Assembly: GCA_018715925.1 (NCBI GenBank)
Contig: DVKQ01000002.1
Coordinates: forward strand, 1-44,868
Length of the DNA: 44,868 nucleotides
Direction: 5' to 3'
DNA from: Candidatus Onthousia faecipullorum
Lineage (GTDB): Bacteria > Bacillota_I > Bacilli_A > RF39 > UBA660
Below are positions 660 to 39,310 of the stretch, in pieces. The notes under the pieces were generated by a model, which was given only the letters and a program-made list of their open reading frames with translations, was not told the origin of the DNA and searched no databases. Both the position numbers and the translations under genes were made by a program. Position 1 is the stretch's first letter. The number at the start of each line of letters is the position of its first letter.

Positions 660-1496
660 TTATTTAAAAATGCTAACTCTTTTTTCATGTTCTTTAAACA
701 TATTTATCCGACTATTAAATTTAGTAATTATTTCATTCTTTAAGTTATTGTCTATTATAAAATCATTTTCTCTTTCAGTTTCTTCTATTATCTTTTCTAT
801 ACCTATAGAGTCTAGTGTATTAAGATAACTATAGAATTTCTCTTTATAAGCAGTATCAGAGTTTTCTATAAATTTATCTAATTTATCTAAATCACTTTTT
901 AAATAATCATCTTCATCTACGCCTAAAGCTGTACTTTTATCAGCTAGTATACTTGATGTATCATATAAAGGAGCGAGTGTTACGGTATTATAACTTTCTA
1001 TTATTTCTATATTTCTTAAAGTTCTATCAGATTCTCCTACTAATAGATCAAACATAAATATATTAGTAATGCCATCCATAAGATTTTTAACAATATTTTT
1101 ATCTTCATATCTATCTTCTAGAGCAAACCAAATATCTTCTAAATTATTTAAACTAGCTAGCTTTCTATAGTCTAATAGCTCATCATCATTGTTTTCGTAA
1201 AAGTAGTTTTGCATTAAGTTATGCAAATTATAACTTTTATCATCATCTTTTAAATAACTTTTATTAAGTAGTCCATATTTATCGTTTAAAATAGCAATAG
1301 ATTCTTTAAGATAAAGTATTCCTAAAAGGAAGGCAATAGTTTTAGAAATCATTTCCATTACTAGTTCTCTATTAGGTACTTCTTTAAAGTAATAAGTATC
1401 ATTATCCATTTTAAAATTGTATATAGTATGGCTTCCTTTAAAATTAGGAATTAAATTATCTTTGTTAATTATTTTATCTAAATTGACCATCTTCAT
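660..1496 (-). CDS. HipA-like (HipA_C kinase-fold) protein, degenerate motif
   Basis: FDLLVGESDRTLRNIEII...LAPLYDTSS resembles the HipA C-terminal motif (GN.DdH.kN ... LaP.YD), but the His is replaced by Thr. No HipB-like partner lies adjacent. Confidence 0.4.
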   Translation of the reverse strand: MKMVNLDKIINKDNLIPNFKGSHTIYNFKMDNDTYYFKEVPNRELVMEMISKTIAFLLGILYLKESIAILNDKYGLLNKSYLKDDDKSYNLHNLMQNYFYENNDDELLDYRKLASLNNLEDIWFALEDRYEDKNIVKNLMDGITNIFMFDLLVGESDRTLRNIEIIESYNTVTLAPLYDTSSILADKSTALGVDEDDYLKSDLDKLDKFIENSDTAYKEKFYSYLNTLDSIGIEKIIEETERENDFIIDNNLKNEIITKFNSRINMFKEHEKRVSIFK

Positions 1497-4732: not shown

Positions 4733-5728
4733 CTAAATTTTATTAACTTCTCTGGTTAGTTCTTCTATCAATTTATGAGTATAAACTCGCTTAGTTAGAT
4801 CGGATATCCTATGTCCCATTATTAACTTGATAGAGTGTTCATCTGCTTTAACTCTAGCCATAAGTGTAGCGAATGTATGACGACAATCATAAGGGGTATG
4901 ATTACTCATGTCTAGTTCTTTTAGCTCACGTTTCCAAATTTGATAGAGACTATCTTGGCTACTATATCTTTCAAATCTTCTATTATTTATCAAGTCGTGA
5001 AAAATATCTTTAATTTTGTCGTTAAGAGGAACAACTCTATTTTTCCCTGACTCAGTCTTTAAACCTGTTACAAAATAATCTTCGTGTACTTCACTAATTA
5101 CAAGTAATTCTCCAGGTCTTACCCCAGTATAAATATCAACTAATATTTCATCAACGACATCATTTCTATTATTCCATAATTTTTCTATTTCTTCATCAGT
5201 AAATGGTTTGTGCTTATCAGATTCTACTTTTTTAGGCAATATTACCAATAAAGAGGCTTTATTTTTTAACTTTATATTAATACCTTTAGCATATTCGTAC
5301 ATTTGATTATACATATTTATTATCTTGCCACAATATTCTGAAGTGCAGTTAGCATTATCTACTATATCCTGTAAATCTCTACTGGTAATATCTTCAAATG
5401 CTTTATTTTCTAGGTGTTTATAATGTTTATAATAATTTTTATAAAGTTTTAATGTATTTTCAGCCATACCAGCTTTTTCTTTATATTTGTACCATAAATT
5501 AAATAAGTACTCAAATGAAACACCAACTAGATCTAGATCAAATAATTCATCGTGATATCTTGCTAGCATTTGTTTACCTTCAGCTCTTGTTCTAGCATAT
5601 CCTATCGTTTTCTTTATAGGTTTACCTTCGTCAGTCCAGTCAACAAATACTTGAACACGATAAGGTTTTCTTCTTCTTGATTTTCTATCAATTATAGATA
5701 CTGTTCCATATCCATTAGGATTTTTCAT
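4733..5728 (-). CDS. int: tyrosine recombinase / phage integrase
   Basis: RPGELL, HTPYDCRHTFATLM and GHRISDLTKRVYTH give the R...HxxR...H..Y catalytic pattern. An N-terminal SAM-like region is present, and the gene is adjacent to attL. Confidence 0.9.
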   Translation of the reverse strand: MKNPNGYGTVSIIDRKSRRRKPYRVQVFVDWTDEGKPIKKTIGYARTRAEGKQMLARYHDELFDLDLVGVSFEYLFNLWYKYKEKAGMAENTLKLYKNYYKHYKHLENKAFEDITSRDLQDIVDNANCTSEYCGKIINMYNQMYEYAKGINIKLKNKASLLVILPKKVESDKHKPFTDEEIEKLWNNRNDVVDEILVDIYTGVRPGELLVISEVHEDYFVTGLKTESGKNRVVPLNDKIKDIFHDLINNRRFERYSSQDSLYQIWKRELKELDMSNHTPYDCRHTFATLMARVKADEHSIKLIMGHRISDLTKRVYTHKLIEELTREVNKI

Positions 5729-18697: not shown

Positions 18698-18788
18698 CTT
18701 CTCCACTTATCTCCGCTTTAGATGTGCTATTATTGTATTATGAAGAATTATAAAAGTTCTTCACACCAAATACCCTTTTTATTCTTTG

Positions 18789-18811
18789 AGAGCTAGAAAT
18801 AGCTCTTTTTT
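18789..18811 (+). terminator. rho-independent terminator separating the early/middle and late operons
   Basis: AGAGCTA-GAAA-TAGCTCT followed by TTTTTT. Confidence 0.75.
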
Positions 18812-18913: not shown

Positions 18914-18987
18914 CGCAGATGTAGTGTAGTAGTAGCACACGAGTCTCTTTAGCTCGTAGGGTGGTGCAATTCCAACATCTGCAACCA
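18914..18987 (+). tRNA. non-canonical tRNA-like gene, anticodon CUU, with initiator-tRNA-type acceptor end (C1xA72, G2:C71, C3:G70, A73, encoded CCA)
   Basis: Manual fold:
- acceptor C|GCAGAT / ATCTGC|A, followed by ACCA
- D stem GTGT/GCAC
- anticodon stem CGAGT/GCTCG with loop CTCTTTA
- T stem GGTGG/CCAAC (one mismatch) with loop TGCAATT
The connector, variable loop and T-loop are atypical. Confidence 0.4.
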
Positions 18988-19014
18988 AGAAAGCAGTTAA
19001 GGAGGTGGTATCGA

Positions 19015-19398
19015 AAGGAAGAGAAGAAGAAAATAGGCAGACCTTTAAAATTTCAAAGTGTCGAGGTCTTGCAAAAGAAAATAGATGCTTATTTTGATGA
19101 TGAAAACAATAAACCCTATACTGTTTGTGATTTGTGTGTATGGTTAGATTGTGATAGACAGACTCTATTAAATTATCAAGAAAAAGAAGAGTTTTTTGAC
19201 ACTATAAAAAGAGCTAAAACAAAAATTGAAGCTAGTATAGAAAAGGGAGCCTTATTGGGTGTCTTTAATCCTACATTTTCTATTTTTAATATGAAAAACA
19301 ACTTTGGTTGGCAAGATAAACAAGAAATAGATACCACTTCTTCAAATAGAATAGAAATTATAAACGATTTGCCAAGTGATATAGATGAAGATAAGTAG
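19015..19398 (+). CDS. terS: terminase small subunit; start codon uncertain (proposed AAG at 19015; the track start GTG at 18961 has no SD)
   Basis: ..KKKIGRPLKFQSVEVLQKKIDAYF....KPYTV.DLCVWLDCDRQTLLNY is a typical TerS HTH N-terminus. TAAGGAGGTGGT (18998-19009) is followed after 5 nt by an in-frame AAG. Confidence 0.7.
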   Translation, partial: KEEKKKIGRPLKFQSVEVLQKKIDAYFDDENNKPYTVCDLCVWLDCDRQTLLNYQEKEEFFDTIKRAKTKIEASIEKGALLGVFNPTFSIFNMKNNFGWQDKQEIDTTSSNRIEIINDLPSDIDEDK

Positions 19399-20752: not shown

Positions 20753-21139
20753 ATGAGAAAAAAAGAATTAATAGAGTTTCAAAAAGAATTAATGAAAAAA
20801 TTCGAAGAAAAATGCGACAAATGTATTTCTTTAGAAGAAACAATAACAAAACTAAATGATATAAATAAAGAAATTAATTTAAAATATATGGTATTACTTG
20901 CAAAATATAATAAACTATTAAAATCCACGTTAGATAATGAAACAAAAAATATTACTTATAATGGCAAATTGTATAAAATTAATGAAGTTAATCATTATCA
21001 AAAAACTGGAGAAATTGAAAGCATAGTAATAACTGCACATAATATTCCAGAAAAAGAGGGTTTAGTTAACTCTATGGGTAAAGTTTTTAAAGAAGCTTAT
21101 GATAGTATTAATGAAACGTTGTTTGGAAATAAAAAGTAG
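20753..21139 (+). CDS. hypothetical protein between terL and portal
   Basis: SD is AAAGGAG. The N-terminus is coiled-coil-like. Confidence 0.5.
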   Translation: MRKKELIEFQKELMKKFEEKCDKCISLEETITKLNDINKEINLKYMVLLAKYNKLLKSTLDNETKNITYNGKLYKINEVNHYQKTGEIESIVITAHNIPEKEGLVNSMGKVFKEAYDSINETLFGNKK

Positions 21140-21148
21140 GTGATTTAA

Positions 21149-22627
21149 AAGGGATTATATCAAGACATACAAAATAAATTAAGTAAAAAAGGAATTAACC
21201 TTGTTGTTGGAGATATTTACGACATGATGGCAATATGGAAGTCGTGGTATCGTGGCAACGTTAATGACTTCCACTACTTCACTATGAAAATGGCAGATGG
21301 AACTACGAAACAGTGCGAAAGATTAACAATGAATATGCCGAAAAAAGTATGTGAAGACTTTGCAAAATTATTATGGTCAGAAAAAGTACAAATAAAGCTT
21401 GATAAGAAGAAAAACACGGAAAGACTATTAGAAGTATTAGACAGTAAAGAAAACAACTTTAAAGTCAACTTTCCTAACTTTCTAGAACGTGTTTTTGCTT
21501 TAGGTACAGGAGTTACTGTAGAATATCGAAAAGATGATAAGACTTTAATCGATTATATAGATGGCGATATAGTTATTCCTTATAAATATACCAACAGTTA
21601 TATAAATGGCTTAATAACTGTTAGTAGATTTACAAAAGGAGCCGATAAAGATAAAAAATATTTTACTCATATAACTTACCATGAGTTTAAAGATAGTAAA
21701 TATACAAAACTAAACGAATTATATGAGTCAAACAATGAAACAACTTTAGGAGAAGAAATCAACTTTAACGAAAAGTTTCCTGATGTATTGGAATTTGAAG
21801 AGTTCGATACAGACAATCCTCACTTTCAAGTATGGGAGCCAGTTGTTGCTAATAACTTCGACACAGATAGCCCTATGGGTATATCTATATTTGCTAATCA
21901 GATAGATAAATTTAAGGCTATAGATACAGAGTATGATAGTTTTAATCGTGAATTTAGAACTGGTAAGAAAAGAGTTCTAATTAGTAGAGAGGCAGTAAAG
22001 AAACATTATGTACCAGATCCAGAAGAAGAAGGAAAAGTTAATTTAGTTAGTTATTTTGATAATAATGATGAGGTATATGTTGCTATTGCAGGAATGGAAG
22101 ACCAGCCTGTTAAAGAAATCGATTTTAATTTAAGATACCAAGAGCATATTAGTTCAATAAATGCACAGTTAAATTACATTAGTGCCGGTGTTGGCTTAGG
22201 CCAGAACTATTATAACTTTGATGGTCAAGGTGTTAAAACTGCTACTGAAGTTGTATCTGAAAATAGTGATACATATAGAACTAAGAAACATCACGAGTTA
22301 ATGGTTAATGACTGCTTATATGATTTAGTCAAAGCAATATGTGAGCTTGAAGATATTCCTTATAAATCAATTAATATAGTCTTTGATGACTCTATTATCG
22401 AAGATGAAAATGCACTAATTCAAAGAGGATTAGAACTATATCAAAGTAAGACTATTTCGCTAGAAAAGTTTATGAAGAAATATCTACACTATGAAGATAG
22501 TGAAATTCAAGAAGAAATAGCAAAAATTCAAAGTGAAAATAAGTTAGTTCAACCAGAAGGTATGGACTTTTTTGGAATGGAACAAGAAACAGAAGTCCAA
22601 GATGAAGAAGTAGTAGAGGAGGGATAG
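21149..22627 (+). CDS. portal protein (SPP1 Gp6-like family); proposed AAG start at 21149, first ATG at 21224
   Basis: AIWKSWYRGNVNDFHYF and overall length and acidic C-terminus fit this portal family. The frame is open from the AAG that follows AGGTGAT-TTAA. Confidence 0.8.
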   Translation, partial: KGLYQDIQNKLSKKGINLVVGDIYDMMAIWKSWYRGNVNDFHYFTMKMADGTTKQCERLTMNMPKKVCEDFAKLLWSEKVQIKLDKKKNTERLLEVLDSKENNFKVNFPNFLERVFALGTGVTVEYRKDDKTLIDYIDGDIVIPYKYTNSYINGLITVSRFTKGADKDKKYFTHITYHEFKDSKYTKLNELYESNNETTLGEEINFNEKFPDVLEFEEFDTDNPHFQVWEPVVANNFDTDSPMGISIFANQIDKFKAIDTEYDSFNREFRTGKKRVLISREAVKKHYVPDPEEEGKVNLVSYFDNNDEVYVAIAGMEDQPVKEIDFNLRYQEHISSINAQLNYISAGVGLGQNYYNFDGQGVKTATEVVSENSDTYRTKKHHELMVNDCLYDLVKAICELEDIPYKSINIVFDDSIIEDENALIQRGLELYQSKTISLEKFMKKYLHYEDSEIQEEIAKIQSENKLVQPEGMDFFGMEQETEVQDEEVVEEG

Positions 22628-24877: not shown

Positions 24878-24943
24878 TGTCCAACATAAAGACAATAAAG
24901 AATGGTTAAGTCCAACTTAATGACTTAAAAGAAGGGAGAATTT

Positions 24944-25471
24944 ATGGAACAAGAAAATGTTCAAAATGTTACAGAAGAAAAAGTAACTGAAAATACAGAA
25001 ACACAGACTGCAGAAGAAAAAGTGGAGAAAGCTTTTGCTACTCAAGAAGAATTTAATGAAGCTTTAAAAAAGGAAGTAGCTAGAAAAACTAGAAACGTAC
25101 CTAGTAAAGAAGAGTTAAAAGCTTTTAATGAGTGGAAAGAAAGTAAAAAAACTGAGACAGAGAAGTCTTTAGAAAAAGATAAGAGAATAGAAACTTTAGA
25201 AAAACAACTTGCTTATGCAGAGAACAAGTCGGTAGTGGCCAATGCTGGTGTTGATTCTAAATTTCAAAAGTTCGTTTTGTCAGAAGTTTCTGAGATTGAG
25301 GGAGACTTTGAAGATAATTTAAAAGATTATTTAAAAGAAAATCCTCAATACTTAGTTAGTAAAGTTGAAACACCTAAAACAAATGGTGTAGCAACTAAGA
25401 AAATTAGTAATGATGCCGAAGACGGGGTTACTGCTATTTTAAAAGCAAAACACCCTGATATTGATTTTTAG
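24944..25471 (+). CDS. scaffolding protein
   Basis: Acidic, helical and Glu/Lys-rich, and located immediately upstream of the capsid gene. Confidence 0.65.
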   Translation: MEQENVQNVTEEKVTENTETQTAEEKVEKAFATQEEFNEALKKEVARKTRNVPSKEELKAFNEWKESKKTETEKSLEKDKRIETLEKQLAYAENKSVVANAGVDSKFQKFVLSEVSEIEGDFEDNLKDYLKENPQYLVSKVETPKTNGVATKKISNDAEDGVTAILKAKHPDIDF

Positions 25472-25487
25472 AAGGAGAGTGATTTAA

Positions 25488-26624
25488 AAGGCAAATACTA
25501 TTAATACAAATGGTACTCATGAAAGACAAGAAAGATATGCTAGTCAAATCGTTAAATTAATGAGACCATACTTCAGAATTAGAAGTACATTTTCAAGAGA
25601 TTACGAAGGTAATCCAACAGCTGGAGCAGTTAAAGTCCCAGTAAGAAACATGGACGTAAATGTTCGTGATTACGATATTAAAAATGGTTTAGCATTAGAA
25701 CAAAGTGCTACAAACTATCTAAATATCCCTATCAATTTTAATAAAGGTATTAATGAGTTAATTGATGGATATGAAGCAGCAGCAGTTCCTGATAACTTAA
25801 TGGCTCAAAGAATGGAGAGCGCAGCTTATTCTTTAGCTAAAACATTTGAGGAAGATGCTATTAACGCATTAGTAAGTAATTCTACAGTATCTACTCAACC
25901 AGATGGAACTGTAGATAATATTTATATGAATATCGTTAAAGATATTGCTCAATTAGCTAAACGTGGTGTAGATAAGAATAGAATGTATGTTGCTGTATCT
26001 TACGCAACTGAAGCTTTATTACTTGCTAACCCAGTATATGCTAATACTTCATCACAAATTGGTGCAGAATTAGCTAGAAATGGTATTGTTAACAGAATAA
26101 ACGGTGTTAACATCATTACTCAAGACTTGGGAGAGACAGAAGACGGACAAGCAATTGAATATATTGTTTACGGTATTGACTGGACTCAAGCTATTGACGA
26201 GTGGATGGTTAACCCTGTTGTTGTTGACTTAACTACCGGTTCAAGCGAATATATTGGTGCTAGTGCATTAAAAGGACGTATGGTTTATGCTGATGCTGTA
26301 ACTGATAAAAACGCAGTTATTGTTAAGGCTAAAGTTGGTGTATCTGCAGTAGAAATTACACCAGTTGCTGGTTTATCTGGAACTTTAGCAGATTCTACTA
26401 AAGTAGCAGATTTAGCAAGTGTTGGTGGTAGTGGAACTGTAACTTATGCATTGCCTACTGGTGTAGCTGACAACGATAAATTTGAAATTAGTACTAACAC
26501 AGTAGTAACTAAAGACGGAACTACTGGAGCAGGTACTTATACTATCGTAGTTAATGCTACTGATACAGCTGATAATGAAGCTTCAGCAACTGCAACTATT
26601 AACGTAGCAGAAGCTAGTGAATAA
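25488..26624 (+). CDS. major capsid protein with C-terminal Ig-like decoration domain; proposed AAG start at 25488, first ATG at 25560
   Basis: Position after the scaffold, size and composition fit a capsid protein. The C-terminal ~90 aa (VTYALPTGV..FEISTNTVVTK..AGTYTIVVNATD) is Ig-like. The frame is open from the AAG after GAAGGAGAGTGAT-TTAA. Confidence 0.75.
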   Translation, partial: KANTINTNGTHERQERYASQIVKLMRPYFRIRSTFSRDYEGNPTAGAVKVPVRNMDVNVRDYDIKNGLALEQSATNYLNIPINFNKGINELIDGYEAAAVPDNLMAQRMESAAYSLAKTFEEDAINALVSNSTVSTQPDGTVDNIYMNIVKDIAQLAKRGVDKNRMYVAVSYATEALLLANPVYANTSSQIGAELARNGIVNRINGVNIITQDLGETEDGQAIEYIVYGIDWTQAIDEWMVNPVVVDLTTGSSEYIGASALKGRMVYADAVTDKNAVIVKAKVGVSAVEITPVAGLSGTLADSTKVADLASVGGSGTVTYALPTGVADNDKFEISTNTVVTKDGTTGAGTYTIVVNATDTADNEASATATINVAEASE

Positions 26625-26644
26625 GGTTAGAAAGGAGTTAGATT

Positions 26645-27007
26645 ATGGTTACAAAGGAAGAATATGAAGAATACTTTGGGCAGTCTGCTCCTTCTAATTT
26701 TTCAAGATTAGAATTTATTAGTTTGAATACAATTAAATCTATAATTACAAGACCTGTTCCTAAAGAGTCTTGTCCTTTTTATGAAGACTTTAAAAAGGCT
26801 ATTTTGGAACAAATTAATTATTATGATTTAAATTCAGACTTGATTACTAGTTCATCTTCTGGAAGTTATACGTTAGGTAGCTATTCAGAGGGCGGAAGTA
26901 GTGAAATAGAAACATCTAAAAGCATATCTAGGTTAAGTCCAGTTGCTTATGAAATATTACTAAATTGTGGACTTTTACAAAGTCAAATAGGAGGTTGTTG
27001 CTTATGA
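26645..27007 (+). CDS. putative head-tail connector protein
   Basis: Called from position in the neck module. SD is GAAAGGAG. Confidence 0.35.
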   Translation: MVTKEEYEEYFGQSAPSNFSRLEFISLNTIKSIITRPVPKESCPFYEDFKKAILEQINYYDLNSDLITSSSSGSYTLGSYSEGGSSEIETSKSISRLSPVAYEILLNCGLLQSQIGGCCL

Positions 27008-27162
27008 CAAAGTATAAAATGGGAGCAATTGTTAAAAATGTTCCAAAAGGCTCAGAAAAATGGTATAAACTTGCTGGTTGGAAGAAAATAGATTCTAAAA
27101 AGCAAGAAGCAAAGGAAGCTAAAGATGATAAAACCGATTCCGAAAAGACTACTACCACATAA
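27004..27162 (+). CDS. small basic/acidic 52-aa protein
   Basis: The ATG at 27004 lies behind AGGAGGTTG with an ATGA overlap. The track start at 26965 has no SD. Confidence 0.45.
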   Translation: MTKYKMGAIVKNVPKGSEKWYKLAGWKKIDSKKQEAKEAKDDKTDSEKTTTT

Positions 27163-27460
27163 TTGCACTTATAAAGAGTATTTAGGCAATACTGGAGAGG
27201 GTGATGAGTGGGGAGCAGATACTCCACTTAAATTTGTTAAAGTTGAAGAAAAAACACAGTTAAAAGTTACTTCAAACGGTCGTGAAATCGTTGGTAATGC
27301 TCGTTTATTTTACGATTTAACTAATTCTAGTGGTTTGTCTGATAAACCAGTTCAAAATAGCAAGATTATCTTTAAAGATAGAGAATATCGAGTAGTAGAT
27401 ACTGATGTTCTTTGTGGTGAAGAAGATAATCCTCATCACTACGAGGTAATGCTTAAGTGA
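27125..27460 (+). CDS. head-closure / minor capsid-type neck protein
   Basis: Position and size fit, and the C-terminal ..HHYEV.L is typical of head-tail adaptor families. Confidence 0.45.
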   Translation: MIKPIPKRLLPHNCTYKEYLGNTGEGDEWGADTPLKFVKVEEKTQLKVTSNGREIVGNARLFYDLTNSSGLSDKPVQNSKIIFKDREYRVVDTDVLCGEEDNPHHYEVMLK

Positions 27461-27807
27461 AAAAATTTAAAAATGCTAAAGATGCTTTTGAGTGGGCTAA
27501 AGAAGTTATCGAAAATGGTTGTGTAACAGCAGAAGAAGTAATTGCTGAAGAAATCTACAAAGATTCAAATGAGTTCACATATCGAGATACTGGAGATATG
27601 TATAAATCAGGAGAAATGCATAGTAGATTTAAAGAAGGCATAATTACTGAACGAACACCTTATGTAAGAAGAAGATATTACGAGGGTGGTAAAGCTGGAG
27701 CAGGAAATAGAAAAGCACAACCTAGATGGTTTGAAAAAACTGTTGCTAAAAATAAAGATAAATATTCTAAACAAGCTCAAAAAGTAATCGATATGCAGAA
27801 AGGATAA
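27457..27807 (+). CDS. neck / tail-completion protein
   Basis: GTG start follows GAGGT. Called from position in the neck module. Confidence 0.4.
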   Translation: MKKFKNAKDAFEWAKEVIENGCVTAEEVIAEEIYKDSNEFTYRDTGDMYKSGEMHSRFKEGIITERTPYVRRRYYEGGKAGAGNRKAQPRWFEKTVAKNKDKYSKQAQKVIDMQKG

Positions 27808-27808
27808 T

Positions 27809-28195
27809 ATGAATACAGAAAGTTTAATTACATTATTAAGAAATGAAATTGAAAAGACTGGTTATAAATGTTATTCGCCAGACTTACCTCAAAATCTTGA
27901 AAAAATAGTTGCTATTTCGTTAGGAGAAGGTACTAATGAACGTTCTTTAAATAAAGATATTCTATACTCTAGAATACCTTTTTATTTGCTTATTAGAGGC
28001 ACTTCTAATGATACAGAGACCAGAGGTATTGCTGATACTATTTTCAAGCAATTAGACCATAAAACAGACCTAGAAAATGACAATTTAAGAGTAATTTTAA
28101 TAAGTTGCAATATGCCAAACTATGCTTTTAGAGATGAAAATCAAAGAATACATTACAACATTAATTGTAATATTCAAGTCGAGTGGAAGGAGTGA
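27809..28195 (+). CDS. neck / tail-terminator-type protein
   Basis: Lies directly before the major tail gene. Confidence 0.4.
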   Translation: MNTESLITLLRNEIEKTGYKCYSPDLPQNLEKIVAISLGEGTNERSLNKDILYSRIPFYLLIRGTSNDTETRGIADTIFKQLDHKTDLENDNLRVILISCNMPNYAFRDENQRIHYNINCNIQVEWKE

Positions 28196-28200
28196 TTTAA

Positions 28201-28650
28201 AAGGCACAATACGAAAGTTCAGTTAAACAATTTAAAGTTCAATTTGATATTTCAGAGGAAGAACCAGCTGATTATCAAGATTTAATCGCTTTAACAATGT
28301 CATACGATCAAGGAGAAACCCTTGATACTTGGCAAGATTTATATAATTTCTTATCTAATAACGTAAAAACTGGATTAGACCCAACATGGTCAGTATCTGT
28401 TAAATTAGATAAATCAAGTCCAGTTTGTCAGTTTATTTTAGCTAAGGAATTTGCAGTAGGAGCAGAAGCAACTGCTAAATGTAAAATTATCAATTTACTT
28501 AAAGGTACAAGTGGTAAGCAAATAGACTTCACTGCTACTTTAAGTTCAATTACATACGAAGCTACTGCCGAAGAAGTATTACAAGTAGACTTTGACCTTA
28601 AAGTTTACGATAATTCTACATTTGAAGAAACAGACTATACAACAGGGTAG
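28201..28650 (+). CDS. major tail protein; proposed AAG start at 28201, first ATG at 28297
   Basis: It precedes the chaperone and tape-measure genes and has a strong downstream hairpin. The frame is open from the AAG after GGAAGGAGTGAT-TTAA. The ATG at 28297 has no SD and would give a truncated 117-aa product. Confidence 0.7.
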   Translation, partial: KAQYESSVKQFKVQFDISEEEPADYQDLIALTMSYDQGETLDTWQDLYNFLSNNVKTGLDPTWSVSVKLDKSSPVCQFILAKEFAVGAEATAKCKIINLLKGTSGKQIDFTATLSSITYEATAEEVLQVDFDLKVYDNSTFEETDYTTG

Positions 28651-28676
28651 GCTTTTAGTCTGCCCTTTATTTTTTT
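28645..28676 (+). terminator. terminator/attenuator hairpin after the major tail gene
   Basis: GGGTAGGC-TTTTA-GTCTGCCC (two G.U pairs) followed by TTTATTTTTTT. Confidence 0.55.
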
Positions 28677-28687
28677 AGGAGGATTAA

Positions 28688-29128
28688 ATGTTAAAAATTA
28701 CAAAAAATAAATATGAAATCGAAGAAACAATTCAAATTACAGAAAATAAAGAAGGAAAAGAAGAAGTTTTGCTAGAAATACCCATGCAAATAACATCTGA
28801 TGAATTATTAAAATTAAAAGAAATTTTATTTGGTTATACAAACAAAAATATATCAAAATATCAAAATTCAACTGATGAAGAAAAAAAACAACTAGAAAAT
28901 AATGCAGAAAAAGAAATAAATAATCATAATGAAGAAATAGCAGATATCTGTTTCAAAGATAATAAAGAAAAAATCAAAGAAATAGCTGGAGAATACAAGT
29001 ATGAAGAACTTCTTGGTGATATTAAGGGTTTTTTATTAGATTTTTTTATCAAAAAACAGATACAACCAATGAGTACAACGATTACAGACCTTACGAAGAT
29101 TATGAGCAACTTTCGTGCGTTGAAATAA
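28688..29128 (+). CDS. tail assembly chaperone (gpG-like, zero-frame product)
   Basis: Lies between the major tail and tape-measure genes. It is acidic and contains a slippery site near the 3' end. Confidence 0.65.
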   Translation: MLKITKNKYEIEETIQITENKEGKEEVLLEIPMQITSDELLKLKEILFGYTNKNISKYQNSTDEEKKQLENNAEKEINNHNEEIADICFKDNKEKIKEIAGEYKYEELLGDIKGFLLDFFIKKQIQPMSTTITDLTKIMSNFRALK

Positions 29129-29655
29129 ATGGCAAACAGTACAAATTAGATTTATCTTTTAGAAATGTTCTTAAAATTTTTAGATTATTTGAAAATAATT
29201 CGCCTTTCAAATTAGAAAAAACAGCAGAAATTCTAGGAATAAAACAATCAAATGCTTATGTGATAAATGAAATTGCTAATTATTTATTTGGAAAGAAAAA
29301 AGGTAATAGTCATAAAAAAGAAAAAGTATTTGATGTAAATTTAGACTATAAATACTATTATGCTGATTTTTATAAATTAGGTATTGACTTAAATAAAGCA
29401 GATATAGACTGGTGGACCTTTAATTCATTGCTTGAATCTATCATAATAGATGAAAATTCTACTATGTATAAAGTGATATCTTATCGCACTTATGAAAAAC
29501 CATCAAAAAATATAAAAGTTCAAGAAGAAAAAGAACATAAATTTAGAATGTCTATGAAAAGGAAATATGCTTTGCCAAATAGAATAACCCCAGATAAAGC
29601 ATTAGAAAAGCTATGGAACTATGTTGAAAAAAAGGCAGGTGAGAATAAAGAATGA
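28688..29655 (+). CDS. tail assembly chaperone -1 frameshift fusion (gpGT-like; Gp15-type C-terminal part)
   Basis: The -1 frame is open from 29026 to 29655 with no start codon before the GTG at 29260. VEINGKQYKLDLSFRNVLKI is coding-like. Slippery T_TTT_TTA lies at 29029 and T_TTT_TTT at 29041. Confidence 0.6.
29029..29035 (+). promoter_or_regulatory. candidate -1 programmed ribosomal frameshift heptamer (T TTT TTA)
   Basis: It has X_XXY_YYZ geometry in the zero frame of ORF 28688. The -1 frame opens at 29026. Confidence 0.5.
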
Positions 29656-35831: not shown

Positions 35832-36236
35832 GTGAATGAAGTATTGAAAGATAAAAACGGAAATATATTGAACCCTAAAATTCCAAGATACGAATACAAT
35901 TTATATACAAATGAAGAACCTATTAAAACAGGACGCAAAATAAATGGCAAAAATGAATATGTAAAAAGGGTATCTATTCCTCAATTACCAAATAATGGTA
36001 GTTTAGAAATAGGCACTGGTTTGAACATTAACGAAATAAAAGTAATTGATTTAAAAGGTTTAGCTTATAGAAGTTCAGACAACACATATATTCCGCTACC
36101 ATTTATTAGCATGGCTGGAATAAATATTGGTCTTAACACAAAAGTGATAGATAATATATTGAACATATTAATTGAAACTAGTAGTGATAGGACTAATTTT
36201 ACTGGTTGGGCAGAAGTTAGTTTTATATATAATTGA
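35832..36236 (+). CDS. fibre/receptor-binding-like cassette 2 (134 aa)
   Basis: GTG start with no SD. N-terminus NEVLKDKNGNILNPKIPRYE and a divergent C-terminus. Confidence 0.45.
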   Translation: MNEVLKDKNGNILNPKIPRYEYNLYTNEEPIKTGRKINGKNEYVKRVSIPQLPNNGSLEIGTGLNINEIKVIDLKGLAYRSSDNTYIPLPFISMAGINIGLNTKVIDNILNILIETSSDRTNFTGWAEVSFIYN

Positions 36237-39233: not shown

Positions 39234-39248
39234 TGGTAGCCTGTACGG
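39234..39248. repeat. attR core
   Basis: TGGTAGCCTGTACGG is identical to 4632..4646 and forms the 3' end of the tRNA. Confidence 0.8.
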
Positions 39249-39310
39249 GTTTTGAACCCGTGAATACGAGCTTGAGAGGCGCGCGTGTTAAACCACTTCA
39301 CCAACAGGCC
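39234..39310 (-). tRNA. tRNA, folded by hand as tRNA-Glu (anticodon CUC)
   Basis: Minus-strand sequence: GGCCTGT TG GTG.AAGTGGTTTAA.CAC G CGCGC CTCTCAA GCTCG TATTC ACGGG TTCAAAA CCCGT ACAGGCT A CCA. It closely resembles B. subtilis tRNA-Glu in architecture, with one C/T mismatch in the anticodon stem. Confidence 0.7.

Follow-up and report, generated by a model that had tools for sequence, protein, structure and literature searches.

The tail gene and its start site

The stretch of DNA analysed here, to which we refer as the window, comprises 44,868 nucleotides of a Candidatus Onthousia faecipullorum contig (DVKQ01000002.1) and contains a prophage of ~34 kilobases (kb). Our subject is the start of the prophage's major tail gene, the likeness of this start to those of three other late genes, and the role that a transfer RNA (tRNA) encoded by the prophage itself may play in all four. 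The tail-terminator gene (27809-28195, plus strand, PF12691) ends in GAG TGG AAG GAG TGA, with its TGA stop at 28193-28195, and overlaps the start site of the gene that follows. That site (28187-28203, plus strand) consists of the Shine-Dalgarno (SD) sequence AAGGAG at 28187-28192, the spacer TGATTTAA, and an AAG codon at 28201-28203. The spacer contains both the TGA of the terminator gene and a TAA that is in frame with the AAG, and the wider segment 28185-28206 reads GGAAGGAGTGATTTAAAAGGCA. Counted from AAG 28201, the major tail (tube) gene (28201-28650, plus strand) has 149 codons, the first 32 of which (28201-28296) form an 'extension' ahead of an ATG at 28297. A preliminary description of this DNA had recognized that the extension sits behind a special start context, and in this it was right; it named no start codon, which we would place at AAG 28201, and did not link the site to the tRNA with anticodon CUU that is described below.

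The order of genes in this region is tail terminator, tail gene, a chaperone pair and tape measure, and relatives carry the annotations Phage_Gp15 and TMP_3 downstream. Position thus marks 28201-28650 as the predicted tube gene, although its protein has no match in Pfam or PHROGs. An AlphaFold2 (AF2) model of the 149-residue protein, made from a shallow alignment (17 sequences, 93-97% identical), reached a predicted local distance difference test (pLDDT) score of 55. The top Foldseek matches of this low-confidence model are the tail tubes of Sf11, NF5, lambda, 80alpha and SPP1, with E-values of 0.01-0.05 and template modelling (TM) scores of 0.35-0.42.

The homolog comparison that the preliminary description had proposed indicates that the extension is part of the protein. 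A search with the 149-residue translation returned 548 homologs, and query coverage was 99-100% in all 120 of the matches listed. The called N-termini of the homologs vary (MILK-, MEGVRLK-, MSTK-, MSK-) and all converge on K-A-Q-Y-E-S-S. The Met encoded by ATG 28297 is replaced by Leu or Val in several near-identical relatives, and this ATG is preceded by gatttaatcgctttaaca, with no SD in it. Between the window and the related locus L004, the extension carries six synonymous and zero nonsynonymous codon changes. To judge from these comparisons, the extension is translated and the true product is the 149-codon protein, not one of 117 amino acids. The preliminary description had favored the longer form and had pointed out the missing SD before the ATG, and it is borne out on both counts by the sequence and the relatives.

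The context of this start recurs elsewhere in the prophage. The 16-mer GAGTGATTTAAAAGGC occurs exactly twice, at 25477-25492 (capsid) and 28190-28205 (tail), with a shuffle expectation of 0.04 and with two matches in 0/100 shuffles. The shared capsid and tail context had already been noted in the preliminary description, and it extends to the portal gene, before which the 13-mer core GTGATTTAAAAGG has a third copy at 21140-21152. A search that allowed one mismatch gave four matches where 0.23 were expected, a number reached by 0/100 shuffles; the fourth, a one-mismatch copy at 36046, was dismissed as chance, since it lies within a coding frame, lacks an SD and does not mark a start. The tail, capsid and portal sites are built alike, with an SD, then an in-frame TAA, and the AAG directly after the TAA. 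The frame reads GTG ATT TAA / AAG GCA CAA TAC at the tail gene and GTG ATT TAA / AAG GCA AAT at the capsid gene, and the in-frame GTG ATT TAA is present at all three sites. From the AAG to the first ATG the frame stays open for 32 (tail), 24 (capsid) and 25 (portal) codons with no in-frame ATG, GTG or TTG. The motif is a ribosome-binding site (SD AAGGAG(T)GAT and an A/T-rich spacer of ~8 nucleotides) joined to an AAG start, and the in-frame stops within it are incidental or close upstream frames.

At the portal start site (21138-21151, plus strand), the SD is AGGTGAT, the TTAA spacer holds the in-frame TAA, and the AAG lies at 21149-21151. The portal gene (21149-22627, plus strand) has 25 codons before its first ATG (21224); the phrog_533 match of its product starts at residue 8, and the synonymous/nonsynonymous changes in its extension are 13/1 relative to L078 and 9/1 relative to L072. 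The capsid start site (25472-25490, plus strand) has the SD AAGGAG, the spacer AGTGATTTAA with its in-frame TAA, and AAG at 25488-25490. The major capsid gene (25488-26624, plus strand; phrog_267, major head protein) has 24 codons before its first ATG (25560), and capsid representatives at 33-58% identity begin M-A-N-..., with their residue 2 aligned to residue 2 of the AAG-start translation. The fourth such gene is that of the small terminase, terS (19015-19398, plus strand). Its SD, AAGGAGGTG (18999-19007, plus strand), lies 7 nucleotides 5' of AAG 19015, which is 9 nucleotides from the end of AAGGAGG, and the first in-frame canonical start is TTG 19069. The terS product begins (K/M)EEKKKIGRPLKF, and Pfam GP3_package spans its residues 8-105. 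After the start residue, the four predicted products continue with AQYESSVK (tail), ANTINTNGTHER (capsid), GLYQDIQNK (portal) and EEK... (terS).

When all open reading frames (ORFs) of the prophage were scanned for an SD-positioned ATG, GTG, TTG or AAG, exactly four had no canonical start and an SD-positioned AAG, namely terS (19015), portal (21149), capsid (25488) and tail (28201). The remaining prophage genes start with ATG, GTG or TTG. Public protein calls mis-start these genes: for tail proteins the chosen start is either the GTG of the SD or an ATG within the gene upstream (MILK..., MEGV...), and for the capsid of L001 it is an internal ATG. The 50%-identity cluster representative for the window capsid (P0121, 99% identical) is a truncated form of 354 amino acids with an ATG start.

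The preliminary description had further observed that the TGA of the upstream gene falls inside the motif, and had read this as a sign of coupled translation. The position of the TGA is as described. The coupling does not hold up, as the TGA is an upstream gene's stop at the tail site alone, and no canonical start abuts it. The scaffold gene ends in a TAG at 25469-71, an ORF of 128 amino acids ends in a TAG at 21137-39, and terS follows a tRNA.

An initiator-like tRNA upstream of terS

The tRNA in question, with anticodon CUU, is encoded at 18914-18987 (plus strand), 27 nucleotides 5' of the AAG of terS and 9.3 kb 5' of the AAG of the tail gene. ARAGORN labels it 'Lys' (CTT), and it scores 41 bits with the Rfam tRNA model. 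Its ends, 5' CGC... and 3' ...GCAACCA, give a C1xA72 mismatch, the pairs G2:C71 and C3:G70, A73 and an encoded CCA. Positions 1 and 72 are thus unpaired, with the C at 18914 opposite an A and ACCA next to it. Bacterial initiator tRNAfMet is characterized by an acceptor end of C1xA72, G2:C71, C3:G70 and A73, a combination that chiefly determines formylation and disfavors binding by EF-Tu. C1 and A72 are invariant across both of the subfamilies that we aligned (20 recoded copies in all), and the formylation determinants G2:C71, C3:G70 and A73 are likewise present in all copies, each having the CGC.../...GCAACCA ends.

The subfamily to which the window tRNA belongs comprises 10 distinct sequences, all of 74 nucleotides, and is represented in the window and at L006, L011, L072-L076, L078, L081, L084, L090 and L091. 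Its T stem has three standard pairs and an invariant GxA. Its architecture has seven acceptor pairs and the terminal C.A, making eight stacked, and a variable loop of four nucleotides, so that the sum 8+4 equals the canonical 7+5. Copies of the other subfamily retain the canonical architecture, with A11:U24 in 12/12 and an anticodon stem of G:C or A:U (29:41), G30:C40 and then U.G (31:39). Those in L007, L009, L068, L079, L085 and others are 77 nucleotides long and are look-alikes of tRNAfMet, aligning without gaps to the Escherichia coli molecule at 61-65/77 positions (~80-84%) and to tRNALys at 44-51. The window tRNA matches E. coli tRNAfMet at 51/77 positions and tRNALys at 39/76. An elongator tRNA-Lys(CUU) would have a paired 1:72, a purine (N6-threonylcarbamoyladenosine, t6A) at position 37 and a tRNALys-like body, none of which is found in the window tRNA.

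Helices are 95% paired with compensatory changes in the window subfamily and 100% paired with 10 compensatory pairs in the canonical one, indicating that both are maintained as tRNAs. In viral contigs, the pattern CGCAGRGTRGAGCAGT...CTGCAACCA found 50 tRNAs, of which 39 are ordinary CAU initiators, five have CUU and six have CCU. Taken together, sequence and structure argue that the CUU tRNA descends from initiator tRNAfMet, with the anticodon CUU in place of CAU.

Two more specific ideas about these tRNAs were rejected. U31.G39 is no hallmark of the recoded tRNAs, as 33 CAU tRNAs in a metagenome scan share the U.G at 31:39, and an extended four-base-pair contact of U37 with an A before the AAG fails because the loci show no covariation between position 37 and the base at -1. 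The metagenome scan also returned other initiator-like tRNAs without a CAU anticodon: 26 with UAU (A1xA72, on human-gut contigs; L118, L120, L127 and 23 other metagenome loci), one with CAG (C1xA72; L141) and one with CUG (L162). These hint that the phenomenon may be broader. Separately, an ordinary elongator tRNA-Pro(UGG) with C1:G72 lies just 5' of the scaffold and capsid genes in some relatives (L008:3-79, L009:6838-6914, L013:3951-4028).

Start codon and anticodon in related phages

We compared the start regions of the tail, capsid, portal and terS genes in 18 viral contigs, three European Nucleotide Archive (ENA) contigs, 20 genome contigs and further metagenome contigs. Most of the genome contigs with such tRNAs belong to metagenome-assembled genomes from gut samples of animals and humans, under the labels uncultured Bacilli or Tenericutes. 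Relatives with a tail identity of ~66% or more have an in-frame AAG 8-10 nucleotides past the SD (AAGGAG, GGAGG or AGGTGAT). This AAG is fixed, and there is free variation in the one or two codons that precede it (TAA, TTA, ACA, ATA, CTA, AGA, AAA, GAA). An in-frame TGA or TAA often stands one or two codons 5' of the AAG in these relatives, which excludes a start farther upstream, and the sole canonical codon nearby is the GTG within the SD itself, which many loci either lack or have in another frame. Ordinary SD-ATG starts are found in the more distant loci L018-L020, and no such tRNA was found within 6-10 kb upstream of them. The portal and capsid genes of L019 have their ATG exactly at the AAG position (M-ANPIGENGTH versus K-ANAIGTNGTH), and in L018 and L019 the tail ATG falls one codon downstream of it.

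Among the relatives, L005 is close to the window phage (terS 91% and tail 86% identical, and the 36 nucleotides before the portal start identical). It has an initiator-like tRNA at the same place, with the anticodon CCU, and its terS, portal, capsid and tail genes have AGG at all four positions where the window has AAG. A scan of L005 found SD-positioned AGG at exactly those four genes and no AAG starts. Across distinct tRNA loci, an SD-spaced AAG opens the next ORF after 20/21 CUU tRNAs, and an SD-spaced AGG does so after 6/6 CCU tRNAs; further cases in the metagenome scan agree with this pairing. AGG starts also occur in a second CCU lineage, unrelated to the first and with a different gene content (L023, L045, L067, L057, L077, L086, L087), at the gene after the tRNA, at the portal gene (phrog_533) and at a minor head gene (phrog_581). 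A change of the middle anticodon base that is matched in four start codons is what would be expected if the tRNA decodes them in the ribosomal P (peptidyl) site. The complementary codon at SD-defined starts and the switch to AGG with CCU are thus indirect evidence that the tRNA may act there.

We propose that a phage-encoded initiator tRNA(CUU) defines a private AAG start codon for four late genes, a reading to which, on comparative sequence evidence, we assign a probability of roughly 0.86. The extended, strong SD (AAGGAG-TGAT), which is complementary to the 3' end of the 16S ribosomal RNA, would place the 30S subunit, the CUU of the phage tRNA would pair with AAG in the P site, and translation of the tail tube would start at AAG 28201, not at ATG 28297. 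Encoded immediately 5' of terS, the tRNA would head the packaging and virion genes, so that the four proteins might be made efficiently only with the phage-supplied initiator. It would act in initiation on the ribosome and either gate or boost late-protein synthesis. Such a mechanism is feasible because IF3 checks Watson-Crick pairing of codon and anticodon and not AUG as such, accepting any match at codon positions 1 and 2 and tolerating no mismatch at the middle position (PMC10158994), and because engineered CCU/AGG initiators work, an initiator tRNA(CCU) with an AGG start being the best pair tested in E. coli (bioRxiv 10.64898/2026.04.16.719103). One could speculate that the arrangement serves to block or delay the translation of late proteins, or that it confers independence from the host initiator tRNA.

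Under the identity rules of the synthetases, U35/U36 with A73 favors LysRS, C35 favors ArgRS, and MetRS needs CAU; the amino acid is likely Lys on the CUU tRNA and Arg on the CCU tRNA, and presumably the window tRNA is not charged with Met. Several points weigh against the proposal of a private AAG start. A Lys-charged initiator is reportedly formylated poorly in E. coli, according to work from the RajBhandary laboratory. The window tRNA also departs from the initiator pattern. It has U37, an extra acceptor pair and a T stem of three base pairs with a GxA; its anticodon stem is A:U (29:41), G:C (30:40) and U.G (31:39) instead of the three G:C pairs of an initiator, and 11:24 is U:A throughout its subfamily, where an initiator would have A11:U24. 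It could be a weak initiator. A scan for sigma-70-like promoters between the upstream hairpin at 18788-18807 and the CUU tRNA found nothing convincing. One locus, L089, is an exception to the codon-anticodon pairing, with a CUU tRNA followed by an ATG gene, though its portal gene still starts at AAG. Finally, many of the related loci are phylogenetically non-independent, and the clearly independent CCU lineages number two.

The alternatives have to account for the same observations, and none of them predicts the covariation of AAG or AGG with the anticodon. Host fMet-tRNA(CAU) might read the AAG inefficiently by virtue of a strong SD, with the phage tRNA serving as an elongator supplement for AAG Lys codons. 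The strong, optimally spaced SDs are compatible with this, as are the Lys label given by ARAGORN and the absence from the window tRNA of the three G:C pairs and of A11:U24. It is nonetheless improbable, as it calls for the middle-position mismatch that is not tolerated at initiation (PMC10158994) and for a very poor start codon on the most abundant virion proteins, which would be odd. C1xA72 and a body closer to tRNAfMet than to tRNALys also speak against an elongator supplement, and both AGG at all four starts alongside a CCU anticodon and the 20/21 and 6/6 agreement would be left unexplained. We regard as very unlikely a start at the GTG within the SD (28192), or farther upstream with readthrough of the TAA, or reinitiation after the upstream TGA without a start codon. 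The frame contains GTG ATT TAA at three sites, the TGA at 28193-95 is the terminator gene's stop, and public gene calls use GTG or ATG starts of this kind in loci with no stop in between. However, the GTG overlaps or abuts the SD and leaves no room for an SD spacing of its own, and ARAGORN found no suppressor tRNA in the window. The relatives differ in the stop that intervenes (TAA, TGA, TGA-TGA or none), and the codons in between are unconserved. Reinitiation would also have to operate at the capsid and portal genes, where the TGA is not the upstream gene's stop, and at terS, which follows a tRNA and not an ORF. Neither version explains the covariation.

That translation really begins at the annotated ATG 28297, giving a 117-residue product and leaving the upstream open frame untranslated, seems scarcely credible. 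It is the first canonical start codon, and the cluster representative of the window capsid, P0121, is likewise an ATG-start call. Against this stand the lack of an SD, the Leu or Val at this Met in close relatives, and an extension that is conserved with mainly synonymous changes; moreover, where distant relatives have an ATG start, it falls at the AAG position and not at the internal Met. Other candidates were tried and rejected. Frameshifting by -1 or +1 on T_TTA_AAA fails because the zero frame closes within eight codons and the TAA of the tail frame comes only after the TGA that ends the gene upstream. A fusion of the terminator and tube proteins is ruled out by the in-frame TAA, and ATT, ATC or ATA starts inside or before the extension are unconserved and badly spaced from the SD.

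Genomic setting and comparison with known systems

Host genes lie on both flanks of the prophage, with PepC on the left and LexA and PolA on the right; the C-terminal end of a tRNA synthetase and ThiF are further flanking host genes. A tyrosine-type integrase (4733-5728, minus strand) marks the left prophage end and a tRNA-Glu(CTC) gene (39234-39310, minus strand) the right, the latter being one of two tRNAs that ARAGORN found in the whole window and probably the attachment site. An ORF in the host flank (660-1496, minus strand) matches HipA_C weakly (E 4e-5, short of the Pfam threshold) and may encode a toxin-like kinase adjoining the prophage. Within the prophage, a terminator-like hairpin with a T-run (18788-18807) lies ~100 nucleotides upstream of the CUU tRNA. 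The tail-assembly-chaperone ORFs (28688-29128 and 29026-29655) are joined by a -1 slippery heptamer, G_GGT_TTT, at 29026-29032, where the -1 frame opens; T_TTT_TTA comes after it, and the arrangement matches the usual G/GT frameshift of siphophages. A megablast search of GenBank phages with 24900-29200 gave no match.

Few features of bacterial translation are as invariant as the reading of start codons by a single initiator tRNA(CAU), and the natural exceptions known to us are near-cognate codons read by that same tRNA. In the literature that we searched, with incomplete coverage, we found engineered initiators only, and neither a natural alternative initiator tRNA nor a phage AAG or AGG start. 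From the sequence comparisons it seems quite probable that temperate siphophages of uncultured gut Bacilli carry their own initiator tRNA, its anticodon changed from CAU to CUU or CCU, and have moved the starts of terS, portal, capsid and tail to AAG or AGG, which would be the first natural reassignment of a start codon by a dedicated initiator tRNA. If so, synthesis of late proteins depends on a translation component that the phage supplies, the flexibility of the genetic code extends to initiation, and viruses have a new way to control or insulate the production of virion proteins. Possible roles would include a lock on late genes in the lysogen and independence from the host initiator pool or from nucleases that target it. 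It would also explain why public annotation errs systematically on these phages, shortening the capsid, portal, terS and tail genes or giving them false GTG or ATG starts within the SD, and would offer ready-made orthogonal pairs, AAG/CUU and AGG/CCU, to synthetic biology.

The phage tRNA shares with bacterial tRNAfMet the C1xA72, G2:C71, C3:G70, A73 and encoded CCA, and the relatives' copies share A11:U24, G29:C41 and G30:C40 as well. It differs in its anticodon, CUU or CCU and not CAU, and in having U.G at 31:39, while the window subfamily differs further in its extra acceptor pair, short T stem, U11:A24 and U37. Among tail tubes, the window protein resembles those of siphophages (lambda gpV N-domain, SPP1 gp17.1, 80alpha, NF5 and Sf11) in the order of terminator, tube, -1-frameshift chaperones and tape measure. 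Unlike them it is without a Pfam or PHROG match, and the likeness in fold comes from a model of pLDDT 55 at an E-value of ~0.01.

Closest in principle are the engineered orthogonal initiator tRNAs (amber CUA; i-tRNA(CCU)/AGG), in which an altered anticodon on tRNAfMet allows the complementary codon behind an SD to start translation. PMC11744186 is a further reference on such engineered tRNAs. All of these are laboratory constructs, whereas the pair described here would occur in nature, carried by phages, serving four essential late genes and retained in many prophages. Natural starts other than AUG (GUG, UUG, CUG, and AUU in infC) likewise place a non-AUG codon behind an SD. They are near-cognate, however, and are read by the ordinary tRNAfMet through wobble at the first or third position, while AAG and AGG differ from AUG at the middle position and would have a cognate tRNA of their own. 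Stop-codon recoding in phages with phage-encoded suppressor tRNAs, reportedly described by Borges and colleagues in Nat Microbiol in 2022, offers a further parallel, as there too a phage tRNA gives a new meaning to a codon that late or structural genes use, and so makes the translation of these genes depend on a phage product. That recoding acts in elongation and turns stop into sense, whereas the change proposed here would act in initiation, turn sense into start, and require a tRNA of the initiator type.

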